Positions 2,604 to 55,294 of a DNA stretch of 56,715 nucleotides are shown piece by piece. The DNA comes from a virus. Its lineage: Duplodnaviria; Heunggongvirae; Uroviricota; Caudoviricetes. Each line of letters begins with the position of its first letter. The first letter of the stretch is position 1. The notes beneath the pieces were generated by a model, which was given only the letters and a program-made list of their open reading frames with translations, had not been told where the DNA came from and searched no databases. The stretch is from IMG/VR virus record IMGVR_UViG_2622736468_000005. One strand, given 5' to 3'. The position numbers and the translations under genes are program-made.

Positions 2604-5600
2604 TATGCAAGCCTCACAATATAGTTAAATGCGATGTTTTTGACGGTGTTTTCCGCGTTACCAGCAGCGTTAACGGTGATGGTGTGTCCATGTGAACCAA
2701 TCGCAACCGAGTGCGTATGCGCACCAATACCTACAGTATGTGCGTGTGCACCTGCGCTTGCAGCAGTACCCGATACAGAGTGCGTATGAGCGCCTGCAGA
2801 AGAAGTGTTAACACTGTATTTAGAATAATCAGGTGATCCACTTCCCGGAGCACCTTTGGTGCCACCTGAAACAAATGTTATCGAATGGGTATGTGCACCG
2901 GCTGAAGCAGCCGTACCGCTAACACTATGGGTATGCGCCCCGGTGTTATTCGTGGATTTAGTGCCGTAATCAAACGACGATGTGGTTTTCGTCCCCAAAT
3001 CCGTACTGGATGCGCTGGCGCTGTGGGTGTGCGATTTAATGCCGTCCTGTTCCTGAGACAATACGGCCCGACCACTGGCAGGTTTGCCCTTAATCGTCCA
3101 GCCACGCATATCAGGGATCACGCCTGACGGATAAGCGGCTGCAAGTTTCGGGTATGCAGATTTGTCAAAAGTCTGCCCCTGCATCAGGGCATAACCAGAC
3201 GGAACGGTATCTGATGGCCACGGGATTGGTGCGCCGACTGGGTAGCTTTCTGGTGGAAGATTTTTCGAGGTATAAACTTCTGCCCAGTCTTCCTCAAAAC
3301 CATAGCCATCTCTTGAGGAACGGTAGAACAGACCTCCATTTCTGTAATGCGCCTTCATCCGCAGGGTCCGGCAACTTCCGACTCCGGTATAGAAGTTAAC
3401 CAGAATATAGCTGTTGCCAGAGCGGGTGACATTGTAAGCGCCTGATTCGGCATTCCATGGAACGCCACCATCCGCATCGGCATATGTATCCGTTGCCCTT
3501 CTGGCAAAAGCAGCCACATGCGCGGCGGTTAAAGTAATATCTTTTGAACCATCAAACTCAACCCCAGAAACCCGTCTTGGCGTTTGCAGCTTTGTTGCTG
3601 TCAATGCGTTACCGTTCAGACTTGCAGACAGCTTGGTTCCAATAACCAGTTCGCCGGTTGCGTTATCAATAGCAAACGGTCTTAATGTATTCCATCCACC
3701 ATAAACATCACCTTGATTGGTAAGCAGCAGGTAAGTTTTAGCGCCATCATTACGCCATAATGCCCCATACTCCCCACCTATCATTCGAATCTGATTACCA
3801 CCACGCGCTACAATTTCGTCTGTGGCAAAAAGTTTTTTGCACGACAAGTTATCGTTAACGATTAACGAATGGGACTCATAAAAACCACGCCCACTCTTAA
3901 AATCAAGGATAACGTCCGCCGCGATACATTCAGTCGCCGGATTTGTTGCCCCAAACTTATAGGTCGTATCATTAACAACGAGATCAGCACCAGGTGCGGA
4001 TATTGACAGGCCATCTTCGATAAACGCAAAAACAGGGAAAGCAGCGCCATCAACATAGAACACAGAGCGCAAATCATCGCCCTTATTACTCATCATTATT
4101 GAGTGGATGGCTCGTTCATTGTTTTGATATTGCCAGAACATTCCATAAGCATAACGCCCCCTGTCAGTCCAGCCACCAGGCATAACAAATCCGTTAAACT
4201 CGCAGTTATTCATCGGATCGCCTGCGGTTCGCGTTGCCGTGGTGATAATGACCCTTGATGCCAGTTCGCTTACTGAGCCAGCAGAACGCATAACAACAAC
4301 AGGATAATATTTTCCAGATGTTGCACCTGCAGGAGCGTTAACCCGCACATAACGCATACCACGTTTATCAGCAAAGTCTGTTTTACTGACCGCGTTAATG
4401 TTGTTCAGGAAGCGTCCCTTATCGGGTATATCAGCGCCGTTCTGGTCTTTCTGCAGACGTTTCTCTGCATTGTCATAGGCTGCTTTTACTGCCTTTGGCG
4501 TTGCCGCCAGCGTTTCAGACGTGCTGTTGGTCGCGCTGCTGAGCTGTACTATCCCCTTTTTCGTCGTGCTCGCATCCTCAAGCGCCACGGCGGATGCAAT
4601 ATCCTCTGCCCGTTTTGCCGCTGTCTCGGCGCGCGTTGCCGCGGATTCCGCCGTACTTTTGCTCTGAGCTGCCGCCGTCGCACTGCCAGCTGCCTCTGTC
4701 GCCTTCGTGGATGCCGTCGTGGCGCTGCCCTTTGCTGCTGACGCCTGTCTGGTCGCCTCATCTTTTGAAGCAGACGCAGATGATGCCGATGACGCCGCCG
4801 AACTGGCGGACGATGCGGCAGCCGTTTTTGAGGATTCTGCGCTGGTTTCCGAGGCTTTCGCGTTCGTTTCGGATGTCTTCGCTGCCTCTTTTGAGGCCGC
4901 CGCATCCCGTGCTGAAGTGGCTGCTTCTGACGCTTTCGTGGTCGCGGTGGATGCAGAAGTGGCTGCTGATTGTTGTGACGCTGCCGCATTCGTTTCTGAC
5001 GTTTTCGCCGCACCGGCACTGGTAGCCGCCGCGCTTTTTGAGGACTCTGCAGCGGCAGCACTTTTTGATGTTTCAGTAGCCTTTGTTGATGCCGTTCCTG
5101 CGCTGGAAGACGCTGACTGAGCCGACATCGCGGCCTGCCCGGCTGATGTGCTGGCTGCACGTGCTGAGCCTGCAGCATCAGTCGCATGGGTTGCCGCCTC
5201 ACTGGCAGATATGCTGGCATCGCTGGCTGACTTCTTCGCGGCTGCCGTGTTCTGTGCCACCGCGGACGCGTTACGCGCCACCTCTTCCACCATCAGTTCA
5301 AAACGGCGCAGTGCCTCAGGACGGGCATCATCCTCCGTCATGGCACCGAGAAAATCATTCAGCGTACCTGGTCTGGAACCTTCATAGACGGTAATGGTCC
5401 CGGCATGTGAAGGCGGAAAACCTTCAACCAGCAGGGTGACGCTGTACTGACCATGCTCAACATCCATGCTGTAACGTCCGGCTTCATCCGGATTTTCAGA
5501 GGCCACCGTGTTCACCACCACCGTGCTGCTGGTTCGTCTGGCCTTCAGCACAATGGTGCAGTTCTGTACTGGTTTTCCTGTGCCATCTTTAAGCACGCCA

Positions 5601-49519: not shown

Positions 49520-49777
49520 GAATCAACTCCGATGCATTTGGTGTGTTAGCCTTGAATCCAACAGGTAAGCCGTCGGTTGGATTCGGGTAAATATCAGGCC
49601 GGAGTTCATGAGGTGTAACCTCGAAATTCGTTACTTCAGCAACACGTAATGCTTTTTCAGGGCTGAATCTTTCATAGCCCCCAGCACTCGACTTACATGC
49701 ACCTGAGATAAACCCGTTAGCTTCCCAAACTGTAGCTGGGTGATATGTTTCTCTTTTAAATAGTCTCTTAAGTTCAT
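49503..49777 (-). CDS. Cro-like / YdaS-like HTH protein, apparently frameshifted at a C5 run at 49678..49682
   Basis: Frame 1: MNLRDYLKEKHITQLQFGKLTGLSQVHVSRVLG...; adding one G gives ...VLGGYERFSPEKALRVAEVTNFEVTPHELRPDIYP... with the expected HTH-then-LRPD layout; divergent from repressor gene. Confidence 0.45.
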
Positions 49778-49884
49778 AGCCAACCTTCTACGTTATGCCT
49801 CGAGCAAATATTAGCCCCGCTAATTTTAAAGATCAATAGCCAGACTATCTTTGATAATATTGGTAAAACAAATAAACTCTATGT

Positions 49885-50346
49885 ATGAAAAAAACACGCG
49901 AAGTGATTGCAACTCCAGAAGCGAGCAAGAATTTAAAAGCCGCATGGAATGCAAGAAAAAAAGAGCTGAAGCTGACTCAAGAGCTGGCGGCTGAGTTGTT
50001 GGGATTCGAATCTCAAGGCACCGTTAGCCAGTATCTGAACGGCAAGATACCGGTAAATACCGACGCTGCGCTAAAATTTGCGGCTCTGTTAAAGGTAAAA
50101 CCAGAGGACATTCGAGAAGACCTTAAAGACTTAATGAATTATGTAAGATCATCAGATACTTATGATGATAACTTTTCAGGCAAAGGATGGAGGCTGGTCA
50201 ATGAAGAACAGGCAGAGTTACTTAACCTCTTCGAGATTCTACCTGCGTCAGAAAAAGCCAAACTCCTTAACCAGCTACGTGGACTAAACAAGCTCTACGA
50301 GGAAGCCTTCGAGAACATGCTGGCACTAAAGAAACGTAACCAGTAG
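49885..50346 (+). CDS. prophage repressor, DicA/RacR-like HTH protein (no S24 peptidase domain)
   Basis: 153-aa ORF; HTH (LTQELAAELLGFESQGTVSQYLNGK); C-terminus resembles DicA; divergent from cro-like gene. Confidence 0.6.
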   Translation: MKKTREVIATPEASKNLKAAWNARKKELKLTQELAAELLGFESQGTVSQYLNGKIPVNTDAALKFAALLKVKPEDIREDLKDLMNYVRSSDTYDDNFSGKGWRLVNEEQAELLNLFEILPASEKAKLLNQLRGLNKLYEEAFENMLALKKRNQ

Positions 50347-50377
50347 CCACCGCTCACTACCCCATCCACAACAAAAA

Positions 50378-50410
50378 AACCGACGTCTTAGTCGGTTTTT
50401 TTGTGCCATA
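50378..50410 (+). terminator. intrinsic terminator after repressor gene
   Basis: aaaaaaaccgac-gtctta-gtcggttttttt. Confidence 0.55.
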
Positions 50411-50493
50411 ACTTCTGCAAATCAGCTGTATAACTAATATTTTTCCCTTGAAAAAACATTTACATAGTTACCAAATCAAAAATATCATACGCC

Positions 50494-50525
50494 ATACTGT
50501 TGACTTAAAACATCCGCGTTACTAA
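50494..50525 (+). promoter_or_regulatory. candidate early-left promoter (TTGACT-17 bp-TAATAT)
   Basis: Near-consensus sigma70 elements upstream of ydfA-like gene. Confidence 0.4.
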
Positions 50526-50599
50526 TATTTCTATCAAGAACAGCACGGCGCTGTAGGTTTTAGTTCCGCCACCCGGCGTTAAGGGGAAATGAGGTCAGC

Positions 50600-50755
50600 A
50601 TGGATACTATCGAGCTTGGCAACAACGAATCTCTGGTGTACGGCGTGTTTCCCAACCAGGACGGCACATTCACCGCGATGACGTATACCAAAAGCAAAAC
50701 GTTTAAAACCGAAAATGGTGCCCGTCGCTGGCTGGAAAGAAACTCAGGTGAGTGA
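50600..50755 (+). CDS. ydfA: YdfA-like small protein
   Basis: 51-aa ORF MDTIELGNNESLVYGVFPNQDGTFTAMTYTKSKTFKTENGARRWLERNSGE; strong RBS AAGGGG; below track cutoff. Confidence 0.55.
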   Translation: MDTIELGNNESLVYGVFPNQDGTFTAMTYTKSKTFKTENGARRWLERNSGE

Positions 50756-50756
50756 T

Positions 50757-50885
50757 ATGGATTTCGACACAATCATGGAAAAGGCTTACGAAGAATACTT
50801 CGATGGTCTTGCCGAAGGCGAAGAAGCTCTCAGCTTCAGTGAATTTAAACAGGCGCTTTCCAGTTCGGGAAAATCTAACGGCTGA
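50757..50885 (+). CDS. ydfB: YdfB-like small protein
   Basis: 42-aa ORF MDFDTIMEKAYEEYFDGLAEGEEALSFSEFKQALSSSGKSNG immediately after ydfA. Confidence 0.5.
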   Translation: MDFDTIMEKAYEEYFDGLAEGEEALSFSEFKQALSSSGKSNG

Positions 50886-50914
50886 TAAGCGAAACAGCAC
50901 CGCGAGGAATCAGT

Positions 50915-51133
50915 ATGCAGAAACGAGAACCCGTCATCATCGCGCCAGACTATACCGATGATGAACTTTATGAGTGGATGCGCCAGAAAATTAATGCAGT
51001 GCAGGATCTGAAATGGGCCAATGAAGCCAGGACTAAGCAGGCTGAAAATCTGTCCGCTCTGGAGCAGGATATCACCAGGCTGGAAAAAGCAGCGGCATTA
51101 AGCATTGCCAGAATGGTTACATACCCACGTTAA
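50915..51133 (+). CDS. ydfC: YdfC-like protein
   Basis: 72-aa ORF MQKREPVIIAPDYTDDELYEWMRQKINAVQDLKWANEA... Confidence 0.55.
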   Translation: MQKREPVIIAPDYTDDELYEWMRQKINAVQDLKWANEARTKQAENLSALEQDITRLEKAAALSIARMVTYPR

Positions 51134-51155
51134 TAGCTAACCAACGAGGCTAATA

Positions 51156-51557
51156 ATGGAATTTAAAGATTTACCAATGCCATTCCAGGAAATGGCAGCG
51201 AATGTGGTTCGCTCTCAACTGGCGACTCTTGACCTGAGTACTGTAGAAAAGGAAACCATCGATACTATATCCGGTAACGTGCGTCGTGCCTTTATAGGTC
51301 TGTATGAAGAGAAGCGCCTATTCGGCGGACAGAATTCGCCTGAAAACAAGAATCAAGCAAATGATGAGAAGCTGAAACACATTATCGCCTTACTTTTGGA
51401 AGACGCAAAACGTCTACAGCAACTGGAACCAAATGCAGGCACAGAGGCCCGCATTTGGATTGCCATGAAATCACTCAAATGTGAAAGCAGTGATTATTTC
51501 AAAACAACAATTAAAACTACTCAACTTTCGGGAGAGCTACTGAAGAAATTGCCATAA
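51156..51557 (+). CDS. hypothetical protein
   Basis: 133-aa ORF with RBS; not part of the K-12 Qin dicBF operon as I recall it. Confidence 0.4.
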   Translation: MEFKDLPMPFQEMAANVVRSQLATLDLSTVEKETIDTISGNVRRAFIGLYEEKRLFGGQNSPENKNQANDEKLKHIIALLLEDAKRLQQLEPNAGTEARIWIAMKSLKCESSDYFKTTIKTTQLSGELLKKLP

Positions 51558-51795
51558 GAGCATGGTCTTTCTCTTGTTCTGCAAGATGAGCATTAATACC
51601 TGGTATGGTTTTTTCAAATTTATCTATCTGTTGAATAACAACTTCGCGGTATACGTTTGTTTTTGTACCACCAAGCGCAGCCGTTAATGCAGAAAGCATA
51701 TTTAGTATCATATCAGTGCGATATGAAAGAATCCTGATAGCTTCATCTTGTTTTTCAATAATAGATTGCAGGGCCTCAATTTGCTTTTTATCCAT
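51517..51795 (-). CDS. hypothetical protein (coiled-coil), opposite strand within early-left region
   Basis: 93 aa from Met at 51795 (MDKKQIEALQSIIEKQDEAIRIL...) with AGGAGGG RBS; AT-rich. Confidence 0.4.
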   Translation of the reverse strand: MDKKQIEALQSIIEKQDEAIRILSYRTDMILNMLSALTAALGGTKTNVYREVVIQQIDKFEKTIPGINAHLAEQEKDHALMAISSVALPKVE

Positions 51796-52126
51796 TTCAC
51801 CCTCCTGAGGGTTGGTAATTAAGGAGTTCTCCACGGGTCAGGTGGAGTGCGTGCGCCGGACACGGGTGAGCATCCGGCACTGACAGTTTACTGAAAGGAT
51901 ATGTCCCTGAAAAGTCAGGGCATAACGCGAAAGCGCACGGCGAAATTGGTCTCTCTGTACGGTGTCGTTAAATTTAGTTCGACCGTGCGCTTCCGGTTGT
52001 GGCAATCCGCGAAATGGCGCGGCGGTAAGTATGGCGGGGTTATTCCTTCCCCGCTGAGGACACCGGGTTGTCAGGTTGACCATACGCTTAAGTGACAACC
52101 CCGCTGCAACGCCCTCTGTTATCAAT

Positions 52127-52184
52127 TTTCTGGTGACGTTTGGCGGTATCAGTTTTACTCCGTGACTGCTCTGCCGCCCTTTTT
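52127..52184 (+). ncRNA. dicF: DicF small RNA (cell-division-inhibitor sRNA)
   Basis: Sequence tttctggtgacgtttggcggtatcagttttactccgtgactgctctgccgccc + T-run matches DicF as I recall it; immediately upstream of dicB. Confidence 0.6.
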
Positions 52185-52353
52185 AAAGTGAATTTTGTGA
52201 TGTGGTGAATGCGGCTGAGCGCACGCGGAACAGTTAAAACCAAAAACAGTGTTATGGGTGGATTCTCTGTATCCGGCGTTAATTGTTAACTGGTTAACGT
52301 CACCTGGAGGCACCAGGCACCGCATCACAAAATTCATTGTTGAGGACGCGATA

Positions 52354-52542
52354 ATGGAAACGTTATTACCAAACGTTAATACGTCTGAAGGTTGTTTTGA
52401 TATTGGTGTTCTGCTCAGTAACCGGGAGTTTACTGAAGATGCCATTAATATGAGGAAATATGAGCCTTATCTGCTCAATTATAATTCCATACTTTCCCGA
52501 ATTGCTCTTCTTGAACTTGGTATTTTCGGAGAACGTCAATGA
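52354..52542 (+). CDS. dicB: cell division inhibitor DicB
   Basis: 62-aa ORF METLLPNVNTSEGCFDIGVLLSNREFTEDAINMRKYEP... resembles K-12 DicB; RBS GAGGA. Confidence 0.7.
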   Translation: METLLPNVNTSEGCFDIGVLLSNREFTEDAINMRKYEPYLLNYNSILSRIALLELGIFGERQ

Positions 52543-52727
52543 CTTCAGCATTTGCACTGATGATGACGGTTTTTCTTATAACGGGTGAATCACAGAATGT
52601 GATTACCGGAATTTATGCAAGTAAAGAATCCTGCCTCCAGGCAAGAGACGAGCAAAAAATTTCTGGTGAATGCCTCCCGCTAAAAAAAGTATCGCTGTAC
52701 CTGAATAACGAAACACCGGCTGGATAA
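52539..52727 (+). CDS. ydfD: YdfD-like small membrane protein
   Basis: 62-aa ORF MTSAFALMMTVFLITGESQNV... overlapping dicB stop. Confidence 0.5.
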   Translation: MTSAFALMMTVFLITGESQNVITGIYASKESCLQARDEQKISGECLPLKKVSLYLNNETPAG

Positions 52728-52822
52728 CCCTCCAGCCATATTAACACCATACCAACGGATTAAAAATGCCAGCAATGGCAGGGATTCGTTCACCCTGAAA
52801 TCTGTAATGAGGTTAAAACAAA

Positions 52823-55294
52823 ATGAGTAAGGTCTTTATTTGCGCTGCTATTCCTGACGAACTGGCAACAAGGGAAGAAGGCGCTGTGGCTGTAGCCACA
52901 GCCATTGAAGCTGGCGACGAACGCCGTGCTCGAGCAAAATTTCACTGGCAATTCCTGGAACATTATCCGGCTGCTCAGGACTGCGCTTATAAATTTATTG
53001 TCTGCGAGGATAAACCTGGCATACCCCGCCCTGCCCTCGATTCATGGGATGCTGAATATATGCAGGAAAACCGCTGGGATGAGGAGTCTGCTTCCTTTGT
53101 CCCGGTTGAGACTGAATCAGATCCGATGAACGTCACTTTTGACAAGCTGGCCCCTGAAGTACAGAACGCTGTCATGGTTAAGTTCGACACATGTGAAAAC
53201 ATCACCGTTGATATGGTTATTAGCGCACAGGAATTGTTGCAGGAAGACATGGCAACATTCGACGGACATATCGTTGAAGCGTTGATGAAAATGCCAGAAG
53301 TTAACGCCATGTATCCGGAGCTTAAGCTGCATGCCATCGGGTGGGTTAAGCATAAATGTAAGCCTGGTGCCAAATGGCCCGAAATTCAGGCAGAGATGCG
53401 CATCTGGAAAAAACGTCGCGAAGGTGAACGCAAGGAAACCGGAAAATACACGTCTGTTATTGATCTCGCCCGCGCCAGAACCAATCAACAGCACAGTGAA
53501 AATTCAACAGGAAAAATCAGCCCGGTCATTGCTGCCATTCATCGCGAATACAAGCAGACATGGAAAACACTGGATGACGAACTGGCCTACGCTCTCTGGC
53601 CTGGTGATGTGGATGCCGGAAACATTGACGGCAGCATCCATCGCTGGGCAAAAAATGAAGTTATCGACAACGACCGCGAAGACTGGAAGCGTATCTCGGC
53701 ATCAATGCGCAAACAGCCTGATGCCCTTCGCTACGACCGCCAAACTATTTTTGGCCTTGTCCGTGAGCGTCCGATCGACATTCACAAAGATCCCATAGCA
53801 CTGAACAAATATATCTGCGAATACCTGACGACAAAGGGCGTGTTTGAGAATGAAGAAACAGACCTGGGCACTGTTGATGTTCTCCAGTCATCAGAAACAC
53901 AAACTGATGCAGTGGAAACTGAGGTATCTGATATCCCAAAAAATGAAACCGCGCCGGAAGCTGAACCATCTGTAGAGCGTGAGGGGCCGTTCTATTTCCT
54001 CTTCGCAGATAAGGACGGAGAAAAATGCGGTCGCGCAAACAAACTTTCTGGTCTGGATAAGGCACTGGCTGCTGGCGCCACTGAAATCACAAAAGAAGAA
54101 TATTTTGCCCGAAAAAATGGCACATACACGGGCTTACCGCAAAATGTAGATACCGCTGAAGATTCAGAACAACCAGAGCCGATAAAAGTTACCGCTGACG
54201 AAGTAAACAAAATTATGCAGGCAGCCAATATCAGCCAGCCTGACGCCGATAAGTTGCTTGCTGCATCACGTGGTGAATTTGTTGAAGGGATTAGTGACCC
54301 GAATGATCCGAAATGGGTTAAGGGGATCCAGACCCGCGATTCTGTGAACCAGAACCAGCATGAATCGGAACGGAACTACCAAAAAGCGGAACAAAACAGC
54401 CCAAATGCGTTACAAAACGAGCCAGAAACGAAACAGCCTGAACCAGTGGCGCAACAGGAAGTGGAAAAAGTCTGCACCGCCTGCGGTCAGACCGGCGGCG
54501 GCAACTGCCCTGATTGTGGCGCGGTGATGGGCGACGCAACATACCAGGAAACATTCGATGAAGAGTATCAGGTTGAAGTTCAGGAAGATGATCCGGAGGA
54601 AATGGAAGGCGCTGAACATCCACACAAGGAGAACACTGGCGGCAATCAGCATCACGATAGCGATAATGAAACTGGCGAGACGGCAGATCGCTCAATTAAG
54701 GTGAACGGTCATCACGAAATCACATCCACCAGCAGGACGTGTGACCATCTAATGATCGACCTTGAAACCATGGGAAAAAATCCTGATGCCCCGATCATCT
54801 CAATAGGTGCAATATTTTTCGATCCGCAAACCGGAGATATGGGACCGGAATTTAGTAAGACTATCGATCTGGAAACTGCTGGCGGAGTCATTGATCGGGA
54901 CACCATTAAATGGTGGCTTAAGCAATCACGCGAAGCGCAATCTGCCATTATGACCGATGAAATCCCGTTAGATGATGCACTGTTACAATTGCGGGAATTT
55001 ATCGACGAAAACTCCGGTGAATTTTTTGTTCAGGTTTGGGGAAATGGAGCCAACTTCGACAACACGATTTTGCGCCGTTCATACGAACGGCAGGGGATCC
55101 CCTGCCCGTGGCGTTACTACAACGATCGCGATGTACGCACAATCGTTGAGCTGGGGAAAGCCATAGACTTCGATGCCAGAACGGCTATTCCATTCGAAGG
55201 TGAGCGCCATAATGCACTTGATGACGCCCGTTACCAGGCAAAATACGTTTCAGCTATCTGGCAAAAACTGATCCCAAATCAGGCTGATTTTTAA
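52823..55294 (+). CDS. large phage exonuclease (YdfE-like N-terminus, zinc ribbon, C-terminal DEDDh 3'-5' exonuclease domain)
   Basis: 823-aa ORF; C-terminal ~180 aa with DEDD exonuclease motifs (MIDLETMG, FDNTIL, HNALDDA); CxxC...CxxC ribbon. Confidence 0.65.
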   Translation: MSKVFICAAIPDELATREEGAVAVATAIEAGDERRARAKFHWQFLEHYPAAQDCAYKFIVCEDKPGIPRPALDSWDAEYMQENRWDEESASFVPVETESDPMNVTFDKLAPEVQNAVMVKFDTCENITVDMVISAQELLQEDMATFDGHIVEALMKMPEVNAMYPELKLHAIGWVKHKCKPGAKWPEIQAEMRIWKKRREGERKETGKYTSVIDLARARTNQQHSENSTGKISPVIAAIHREYKQTWKTLDDELAYALWPGDVDAGNIDGSIHRWAKNEVIDNDREDWKRISASMRKQPDALRYDRQTIFGLVRERPIDIHKDPIALNKYICEYLTTKGVFENEETDLGTVDVLQSSETQTDAVETEVSDIPKNETAPEAEPSVEREGPFYFLFADKDGEKCGRANKLSGLDKALAAGATEITKEEYFARKNGTYTGLPQNVDTAEDSEQPEPIKVTADEVNKIMQAANISQPDADKLLAASRGEFVEGISDPNDPKWVKGIQTRDSVNQNQHESERNYQKAEQNSPNALQNEPETKQPEPVAQQEVEKVCTACGQTGGGNCPDCGAVMGDATYQETFDEEYQVEVQEDDPEEMEGAEHPHKENTGGNQHHDSDNETGETADRSIKVNGHHEITSTSRTCDHLMIDLETMGKNPDAPIISIGAIFFDPQTGDMGPEFSKTIDLETAGGVIDRDTIKWWLKQSREAQSAIMTDEIPLDDALLQLREFIDENSGEFFVQVWGNGANFDNTILRRSYERQGIPCPWRYYNDRDVRTIVELGKAIDFDARTAIPFEGERHNALDDARYQAKYVSAIWQKLIPNQADF

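Follow-up and report, generated by a model that had tools for sequence, protein, structure and literature searches.

The dicBF operon of the cryptic Qin prophage of Escherichia coli K-12, which is a remnant, has the gene order ydfA-ydfB-ydfC-dicF-dicB-ydfD, a contiguous leader from ydfC to dicF and a DicA/DicC immunity pair. In this study, we report the analysis of a dicBF operon contained in the IMG/VR virus record IMGVR_UViG_2622736468_000005 (56,715 nucleotides (nt), referred to as a whole as the window) and of two convergent genes, A and B, that occupy a slot between its ydfC and dicF. The gene order of Qin is kept in the window, whereas neither the contiguous leader nor the DicA/DicC pair is present, and its prophage looks like a complete, full-length lambdoid prophage of the ompW-site type.

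Three other kinds of described system are relevant to this slot. Morons are autonomous promoter-gene-terminator units placed between phage genes. Toxin-antitoxin pairs are found in prophage early regions, as in the cases of RalR/RalA in Rac and of RelBE. Finally, the Rac prophage of K-12 has the order racR, ydaG, ydaF (DUF1391), sieB (on the opposite strand), the small RNA (sRNA) kilS, kilR, ydaE, racC, recE and recT. The superinfection-exclusion gene sieB, which P22 and lambda also have, encodes a membrane protein. In phage P22, sieB is located within the early-left operon (PMC8022706), and it is expressed from the prophage and aborts superinfecting phages (PMC10883804).

A Polymorphic Slot between ydfC and dicF

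Comparison by blastn aligned window positions 50562-51153 with positions 2970-3562 of the K-12 locus, and window positions 51810-53500 with positions 3563-5256 of the same locus. Since K-12 positions 3562 and 3563 abut, the 656 additional bases of the window fall precisely at a point where K-12 is uninterrupted. This block (51154-51809) holds exactly gene A and the convergent gene B, whose 3′ ends overlap by 41 bp. A preliminary description of this DNA had proposed that two extra genes were inserted into the operon. Both are indeed missing from K-12 Qin through a clean 656-bp indel, but they turned out to be a common allele of a polymorphic slot, and insertion is not demonstrated. Nor are they foreign to canonical Qin-like operons as a whole, given that 124 of 5,426 complete E. 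coli genomes carry both genes between ydfC and dicF (at least 80% coverage of the cassette DNA), with the K-12 slot being empty.

Many further E. coli genomes carry a block of similar size that matches at its two edges only. In a rough census, made with junction-specific queries on the complete genomes, the K-12-like empty junction was found in approximately 2,002 of the 5,426, and an occupied junction, with the ribosome-binding site of the reverse gene joined to its leader, in at least 855. The empty junction (GCTAA joined to GGTT(G/A)G) was identical in all the empty sites examined, which were those of K-12, the functional phage Tritos and strain MNCRE44, and all occupied sites had the beginning of A and the B leader in common. 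The annotated occupied loci of O157:H7, PEC148, ABU 83972 and FORC_043 have, between ydfC (or ydfA) and dicB, a forward gene starting with MEFKDLP followed by a small reverse gene. Their forward proteins are alike in residues 1-55 and then diverge, and most of the reverse proteins are mutually unrelated.

In addition, IMG/VR was scanned with the conserved right edge of the slot, a design blind to empty sites, and at least 120 loci were classified. Five discrete cassette types, with a single type of A N-module and a single B ribosome-binding site, were present among the loci listed: A7+B11 (the O157 type, about 40 loci), A3+B2 (the type of the window, 38), A22+B18 (20), A22+B24 (10) and A7+B21 (3). 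A variant of the slot with gene A only was observed in strain 03_3503 (locus L140, 1742-2200), where a deletion has removed the reverse gene together with the initial ~25 nt of its leader.

The common empty junction, together with the common edges of the occupied sites, therefore points to an old, shared presence/absence polymorphism with allele swapping, which may have arisen by deletion or by insertion. The alleles would probably swap by homologous recombination between the N-module of A and the leader of B. It is very improbable that the block is instead a mobile element that entered a Qin-type operon recently, in spite of the clean indel with respect to K-12 and of the greater frequency of the empty form among E. 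coli genomes. The block (51154-51809) contains no transposase or integrase and is not bordered by direct or inverted repeats, neither target-site duplications nor the same block at unrelated genomic sites were seen, and the five allelic cassettes have both edges in common. Moreover, the sequence preserved in K-12 reaches to within 2 nt of the A start codon, including a mutated copy of the A ribosome-binding site, and on the other side to within a few nt of the B Shine-Dalgarno sequence. A literature search found no description of a variable region in dicBF.

Gene B and Its Leader

The open reading frame (ORF) of gene B has the position and the convergent orientation first assigned to it, and its product has 92 amino acids (aa) and not 93, as its 93 codons include the stop. 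With respect to its Salmonella homologues (72-74% identity), the ratio of nonsynonymous to synonymous substitutions (dN/dS) was 0.08-0.25 in frame vs. 0.4-3.1 in the other five frames. Gene B is a real gene under purifying selection. The possibility that this reverse ORF is not a gene, which might be suggested by its overlap with gene A and its lack of a known domain, is hardly tenable: it is effectively refuted by these ratios, and it is also opposed by the strong Shine-Dalgarno sequence GGAGGG, located 5 nt from the ATG, and by distant family members (33-44% identity) that keep the length and the core YR(T/S)D..LN.LSALT.ALGGTK.NVYRE.

The protein matched phrog_18692, a family whose function is not known, over its full length (E = 5.9e-63 over 1-92 of 92). 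The family is tiny: 5.8e9 proteins yielded 22 clusters, and 1.84e9 yielded 15 representatives. No match to B was obtained on scanning one genome per species. The reverse gene of ABU 83972 belongs distantly to the family, scoring 32.6 bits with a profile from which the ABU 83972 sequence had been left out, and in the profile search those of O157, PEC148, FORC_043 and pAEv1818 were not members. B is acidic (isoelectric point 5.7) and has no transmembrane segment, its maximum 19-residue Kyte-Doolittle hydropathy being 0.93. The AlphaFold model consisted of three helices with low confidence (predicted local distance difference test (pLDDT) of 68.6), and the best Foldseek match was a generic three-helix ribosomal protein, bS20, above an E of 0.001.

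Approximately 87 nt before the start codon are conserved ahead of all the reverse genes of the slot. The same leader precedes the B-family genes of Salmonella and of a P2-like prophage, where the DNA further upstream is unrelated. RNAalifold, applied to eight related variants from different contexts, gave a structure of three helices (Table 1), one of which pairs an anti-Shine-Dalgarno sequence with the Shine-Dalgarno sequence. In this structure 93.8% of cells were paired vs. 34-48% with the partners slid, and none of 500 shuffles attained its covariation score. Coming from eight related sequences, the covariation evidence is supportive, not conclusive.

Promoter-like sites were located 89-93 nt upstream of the B ATG, ending 5-7 nt before helix 1, in four contexts, namely the window (Table 1), L012 (TTAATA-17-TAAAAT), L013 (an extended −10, TGtTATTAT) and L010 (GATTAT). 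Terminator-like hairpins follow the B-family genes in two other contexts, L013 and L014. It must be noted that a hairpin of the DicF leader, CCCTGAAAAGTCAGGG (window 51907-51923, + strand), overlaps the candidate −35 of the reverse gene and resembles the boxB of the lambda nut sites (GCCCTGAAAAAGGGC). A boxB/nut-like reading of the leader hairpin CCCTGAAAAG was likewise considered as a possibility.

Modular Organization of Gene A

Gene A, a forward gene of 133 aa in agreement with the preliminary description, matched the profile of phrog_1363, a family whose function is also not known (E = 3.4e-45 over 1-126 of 139), and its two halves match separate PHROGs (N-only and C-only). It is a mosaic of an N-module (aa 1-55, common to all cassette types), a linker and a C-module (aa ~69-133). 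All its 263 homologues are hypothetical by name and belong to the Enterobacteriaceae. The C-module exists by itself as a 71-aa protein in Salmonella prophages (60-62% identity) and as a stand-alone first early gene of 71-95 aa in other phages, and its core ELKHIIALLLEDAKRLQQLEPNAGTEARIWIA opens the first gene after the DicA-like repressor in phiES15, pAEv1818 and Shigella phage 75/02 Stx. The N-module is found alone in Stx phages, and the tblastn matches for the two modules were separate in phages. Gene A is therefore a fusion of small phage modules.

The AlphaFold model of A had a pLDDT of 59.5, the N-module alone being near 80 with an N-terminal helical hairpin. The only meaningful Foldseek match was a 52-aa stand-alone copy of the N-module in phage phi191 (BFVD). 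Apart from this copy, no relative of A was found in PDB or BFVD (profile search of PDB sequences with chance matches at E ≥ 0.3, and Foldseek at E ≤ 0.001), and scans of Pfam, NCBIfam and PADLOC-DB 2.0 gave no match above threshold, the PADLOC matches being at chance level only (E = 0.025 and 0.059). A literature search with the protein accessions of A and B found no paper.

Genomic Context of Gene B

All the B-family genes that could be placed are antisense to the early lytic operon and near the prophage repressor. In Salmonella Rac-like prophages, B is flanked by ydaE-recE-recT on one side and by the 71-aa gene next to the repressor on the other, and the overlap is again 41 bp. The P2-like prophage has a 214-aa early gene that converges on B with an overlap of this same length, and in a further lambdoid prophage B faces a CI-like repressor gene in convergent orientation. 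The partners of B thus differ by context, only their last ~13 codons being alike because of the 41-bp overlap itself. Therefore, A and B need not be functionally linked.

In this regard, it was considered whether A and B form a cognate pair, either a toxin and its antitoxin or an effector with self-immunity, in which B would be the effector of the lysogen and the C-module of A its early neutralizer. The two genes resemble the toxin-antitoxin pairs of prophage early regions in being small, adjacent and overlapping, with potentially antisense transcripts. The variable part of the slot is exactly the C-terminus of A plus B, A3 accompanied B2 in 38 of 38 cases among the IMG/VR loci listed, and the 71-aa C-module and B recur in convergent arrangement in Salmonella with the same overlap. 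On the other hand, the partners are separable in other genomes: A3 is found with an unrelated 57-aa reverse gene in FORC_043, A22 and A7 are each found with two unrelated B types, and B is present without the A C-module in L010, L013 and L014. The common tail of 13 codons is accounted for by the overlap. As for domains, a faint RelB-like NCBIfam match in B reached 15.9 bits vs. a cut-off of 50, and no toxin or antitoxin domain was found above threshold in A or B (Pfam). Such a pairing is, in our judgment, improbable.

Gene B and the sieB Site

The order of the window (repressor, ydfA-C, A, B on the opposite strand, dicF, dicB and an exonuclease) parallels that of Rac. The flanks of Rac, of the Salmonella prophages and of the window align up to ...GTTGTGCCC, beyond which the occupants diverge: Rac enters the upstream region of sieB itself, and Salmonella and the window enter the B leader. 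Given these homologous flanks, sieB and B are alternative occupants of one slot. Both are antisense in an early-left operon and convergent with a small early gene. Rac sieB lies between the DUF1391 gene and kilS/kilR, B lies in the same way between the DUF1391 gene and dicF/dicB, each of these pairs consisting of an sRNA and a division inhibitor, and the flanks on the sRNA side are homologous. As a separate observation, a Salmonella Rac-like prophage (locus L007, 3734-3782, − strand) has a DicF/KilS-like sRNA of 36 bits, below the gathering score, that aligns with Rac kilS (L141, 4906-5003), which suggests that the kilS and dicF leaders may be related.

From the place of B at the sieB position of Rac, we therefore infer a prophage-expressed accessory function. 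The explanation that we favor, with the balance of probability slightly on its side, is that B is an autonomously expressed accessory (moron) gene of the prophage, most plausibly one that interferes with other phages by superinfection exclusion. According to it, an accessory slot of fixed position separates ydfC from the DicF leader in the dicBF (early-left) operon. This slot takes one of at least five interchangeable cassettes and is empty in K-12 Qin. Gene A, with its first 55 codons in common and its C-terminal part variable, would be co-transcribed with the operon. B would most likely be an autonomous transcription unit, with a weak promoter abutting the ~87-nt structured leader, in which CUCC(U/A) would mask the Shine-Dalgarno sequence and keep B at a low, gated level. 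This expression would not depend on the repressed lytic operon, to which B runs antisense. Once the operon is switched on, B would be silenced by the transcription converging through it and through the 41-bp overlap.

A number of observations weigh against this explanation. B gave no match to SieB or to any known defense protein in Pfam (E ≤ 0.01), NCBIfam or PADLOC-DB 2.0, and no match at E ≤ 0.001 in PDB (profile E ≥ 0.3; Foldseek) or BFVD. There is no sequence or fold similarity between sieB and B, the latter being acidic, soluble and of 92 aa. Consequently, of the characters of the SieB family, B has the antisense early-left position and neither the sequence nor the membrane location. Also, the sieB leader differs from that of B, and no leader of the B type is present at Rac sieB. 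A position in common with sieB does not by itself prove a common function. B was absent from 50,697 deposited phage genomes (tblastn) and has so far been seen in prophages only. The promoter candidate of B in the window is weak, with 8 of 12 consensus positions, and under the threshold of a standard scan, and scanning found no terminator after B in the window. Among the single-base variants of helix 2, four favor the B strand and two the operon strand, so that either may be the functional strand of this helix.

Another explanation is that the cassette is mosaic cargo of the early region with no role in the lysogen. A and B would then be ordinary genes of development or host takeover, B being expressed only in the lytic cycle or negligibly, and the hairpins would be processing or stability signals of the DicF precursor on the operon strand rather than part of the B mRNA. 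Small acidic helical proteins are typical early phage proteins. The weak promoter match of B and the two helix-2 variants that keep pairing on the operon strand only are in agreement with it, as is the 97% conservation of the 544-nt stretch around DicF even in empty-slot loci without B. We regard it as possible, at a clearly lower probability, since the same leader precedes B in the P2-like prophage and in the Salmonella loci, where the other flanks are different, and since the antisense orientation is kept across phage types. Furthermore, the compensatory swap in the helix of the Shine-Dalgarno sequence makes sense for a gene on the B strand only, and the wobble pairs of helix 1 form on that strand only.

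Returning to the favored accessory-gene explanation, B is like the morons in its small size and accessory nature and in having a candidate promoter of its own. Its presence between conserved genes varies, with empty, A-only and five occupied forms of the slot, and it occurs in phage backbones that are not related to each other (lambdoid and P2-like). It differs from the morons in that the promoter candidate is weak and the window lacks a terminator, in that the unit is antisense and overlaps a neighboring gene, and in that several unrelated ORFs use one leader. A more far-reaching version, which we find doubtful, would make of the slot a plug-and-play platform with one promoter and one gated leader for at least five unrelated, interchangeable and prophage-expressed reverse genes at the site that sieB uses in Rac, where B and its slot-mates would be new exclusion or abortive-infection proteins and the C-module of A would serve for escape at induction. 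Taken as it stands, the locus is a case of ordinary prophage mosaicism, a frequent allele of a variable accessory slot with two uncharacterized proteins. The mildly novel part is how the slot is built, with one edge in a coding sequence and the other in a structured leader, unrelated reverse genes on one leader, and the equivalence with the sieB site.

Genes of the Operon and DicF

The annotation of the region is provided in Table 1. The matches to Pfam and Rfam and the identities to K-12 agree, exactly or very nearly, with the positions first given for a ydfABC-dicF-dicB-ydfD module. The name Qin-type is correct for the dicBF module and does not extend beyond it, in view of the repressor, with 27% identity to DicA, and of the ompW-site lambdoid type of the prophage. 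The repressor gene is annotated as a helix-turn-helix protein in near-identical loci, and it is heteroimmune to Qin. The two promoter-like sites that follow it may, by their position, constitute the promoter of the dicB operon.

Table 1. Features of the dicBF region of the window and the evidence on which each one is based
Feature	Position	Strand	Evidence
DicA-position repressor gene	49885..50346	+	PF01381 HTH_3, E = 1.1e-9; 27% aa identity to K-12 DicA
Promoter-like sites at the position of the dicB-operon promoter	50459..50529	+	TTTACA-18-TATCAT (10/12) and TTGACT-17-TAATAT (9/12), consensus scan
ydfA (DUF1391)	50600..50755	+	PF07151, 96.4 bits (cut-off 27.3); 50/51 aa identical to K-12 YdfA, 98%
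ydfB	50757..50885	+	40/42 aa identical to K-12 YdfB, 95%; phrog_2061
ydfC	50915..51133	+	68/72 aa identical to K-12 YdfC, 94%; phrog_1744
656-bp block without counterpart in K-12 Qin, type II allele (A3+B2)	51154..51809		blastn vs. K-12
Gene A, 133 aa	51156..51557	+	phrog_1363
Gene B, 92 aa	51517..51795	−	phrog_18692
Structured leader of gene B	51796..51879	−	RNAalifold, 8 variants
Anti-Shine-Dalgarno/Shine-Dalgarno helix of the leader	51822-51826 with 51802-51806	−	CUCC(U/A) pairs with (A/U)GGAG; 4:4 compensatory swap
Helix 2 of the leader	51829-51847	−	Kept with three different stem sequences
Helix 1 of the leader	about 51853-51879	−	9-bp 5′ helix; U.G/G.U pairs form on the B strand only
Weak promoter-like site, candidate promoter of gene B	51885..51913	−	TTTTCA-17-TAAACT, 8/12
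Untranslated leader of the DicF precursor	51810..52126	+	Kept with or without a slot occupant
DicF sRNA	52127..52179	+	Rfam RF00039; 53/53 nt identical to K-12 dicF
dicB, divergent allele	52354..52542	+	PF05358, 122.5 bits (cut-off 27), profile 1-62 of 62; 63% identity to K-12 DicB
ydfD-like gene (DUF1482)	52539..52727	+	PF07358, 54 bits (cut-off 25); 43% identity to K-12 YdfD

DicF was recognized by RF00039 with 76.7 bits vs. a gathering score of 48, the model being matched in full (1-52) at 52128-52179 on the + strand. Its identity had been correctly given in the preliminary description, and the end placed there at 52184 was 5 nt too far. The cassette edge is 317 nt upstream of DicF. The non-coding stretch from this edge to dicB (51810-52353, 544 nt) has 94.9% identity to K-12 and 98.9% to an empty-slot locus, with a mean column identity of 97% among seven loci, whatever their occupancy. 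For the leader alone this value is 95-97% among six to seven loci. The 544-nt stretch is more conserved than the flanking protein genes (DicB has 63% identity to K-12), and one block of ~40 nt within it is found in two haplotypes.

A 95-aa ORF (− strand) and a 64-aa ORF (+ strand) of the DicF leader were rejected as genes because of 1-nt indels among the alleles, on which grounds this stretch is argued to be non-coding. The 64-aa ORF corresponds to window positions 51901-52095 (+ strand) and is annotated as hypothetical in the RefSeq entry of strain 042. In view of those indels it is probably spurious.

As summarized in PMC5069750 from Faubladier et al. 1990, RNase E generates the 5′ end of DicF, and the 3′ ends are formed close to DicF by termination or by RNase III. 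The window keeps the sequences concerned without change. That the insert might alter the processing of the DicF precursor, a point marked for checking in the preliminary description, was not borne out, with DicF identical to K-12 and the surrounding 544 nt nearly so. No + strand terminator was found by scanning between A and DicF. As far as the sequence can tell, the cassette leaves the production signals of DicF and DicB unaltered, and any effect that it might have on DicF would, speculatively, be exerted through convergent transcription.

Two further observations concern DicF and its surroundings. A sub-threshold Rfam match to the Salmonella sRNA STnc100 (38.7 bits vs. a gathering score of 47) at 52177-52386 (+ strand) spans the DicF-dicB spacer, including the conserved hairpin CACCTGGAGGCACCAGGCACC. 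In O157:H7 (locus L003), DicF differs from that of K-12 and the window in the loop and the 3′ half (alignment columns 343-370), with the leader conserved.

Other Features of the Prophage

Opposite the repressor gene, a cro/YdaS-like gene (49631-49783, − strand) has a 1-nt deletion with respect to E. coli 042 in a G-run near 49679-49683, which leads to a frameshifted product of 50 aa instead of 91 aa. Its sequence would be consistent with either a pseudogene of the lytic switch or an error in sequencing the homopolymer. Immediately downstream of the repressor gene (50368-50400) there is a symmetric hairpin with A-run and T-run tails (AAAAAAACCGACGTCTTAGTCGGTTTTTTT) that looks like a bidirectional terminator, and on which weak, sub-threshold Rfam matches to STnc370 and IS128 were obtained. 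The closest relatives of this prophage, NCCP15648 (locus L002, 5117-6283) and E. coli 042 (L142), carry a gene for a Rha-family regulator and a duplicated 5′ fragment of dicB between DicF and dicB, both of which are absent from the window.

Implications

The dicBF operon is usually described from K-12, where the slot is empty, while at least one in six complete E. coli genomes carry in it an extra pair of uncharacterized genes. One of the two lies antisense to the operon and probably does not rely on it for expression. With respect to the biology of DicF, the occupancy of the slot changes neither DicF nor its leader, and convergent transcription of the slot could affect the amount of operon transcript that reaches dicF and dicB. 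If the reverse genes act like sieB, the slot would be a compact and easily searchable source of new prophage exclusion functions, and the common leader would offer a small model for the reuse of a single expression signal by cargo genes that are not related.

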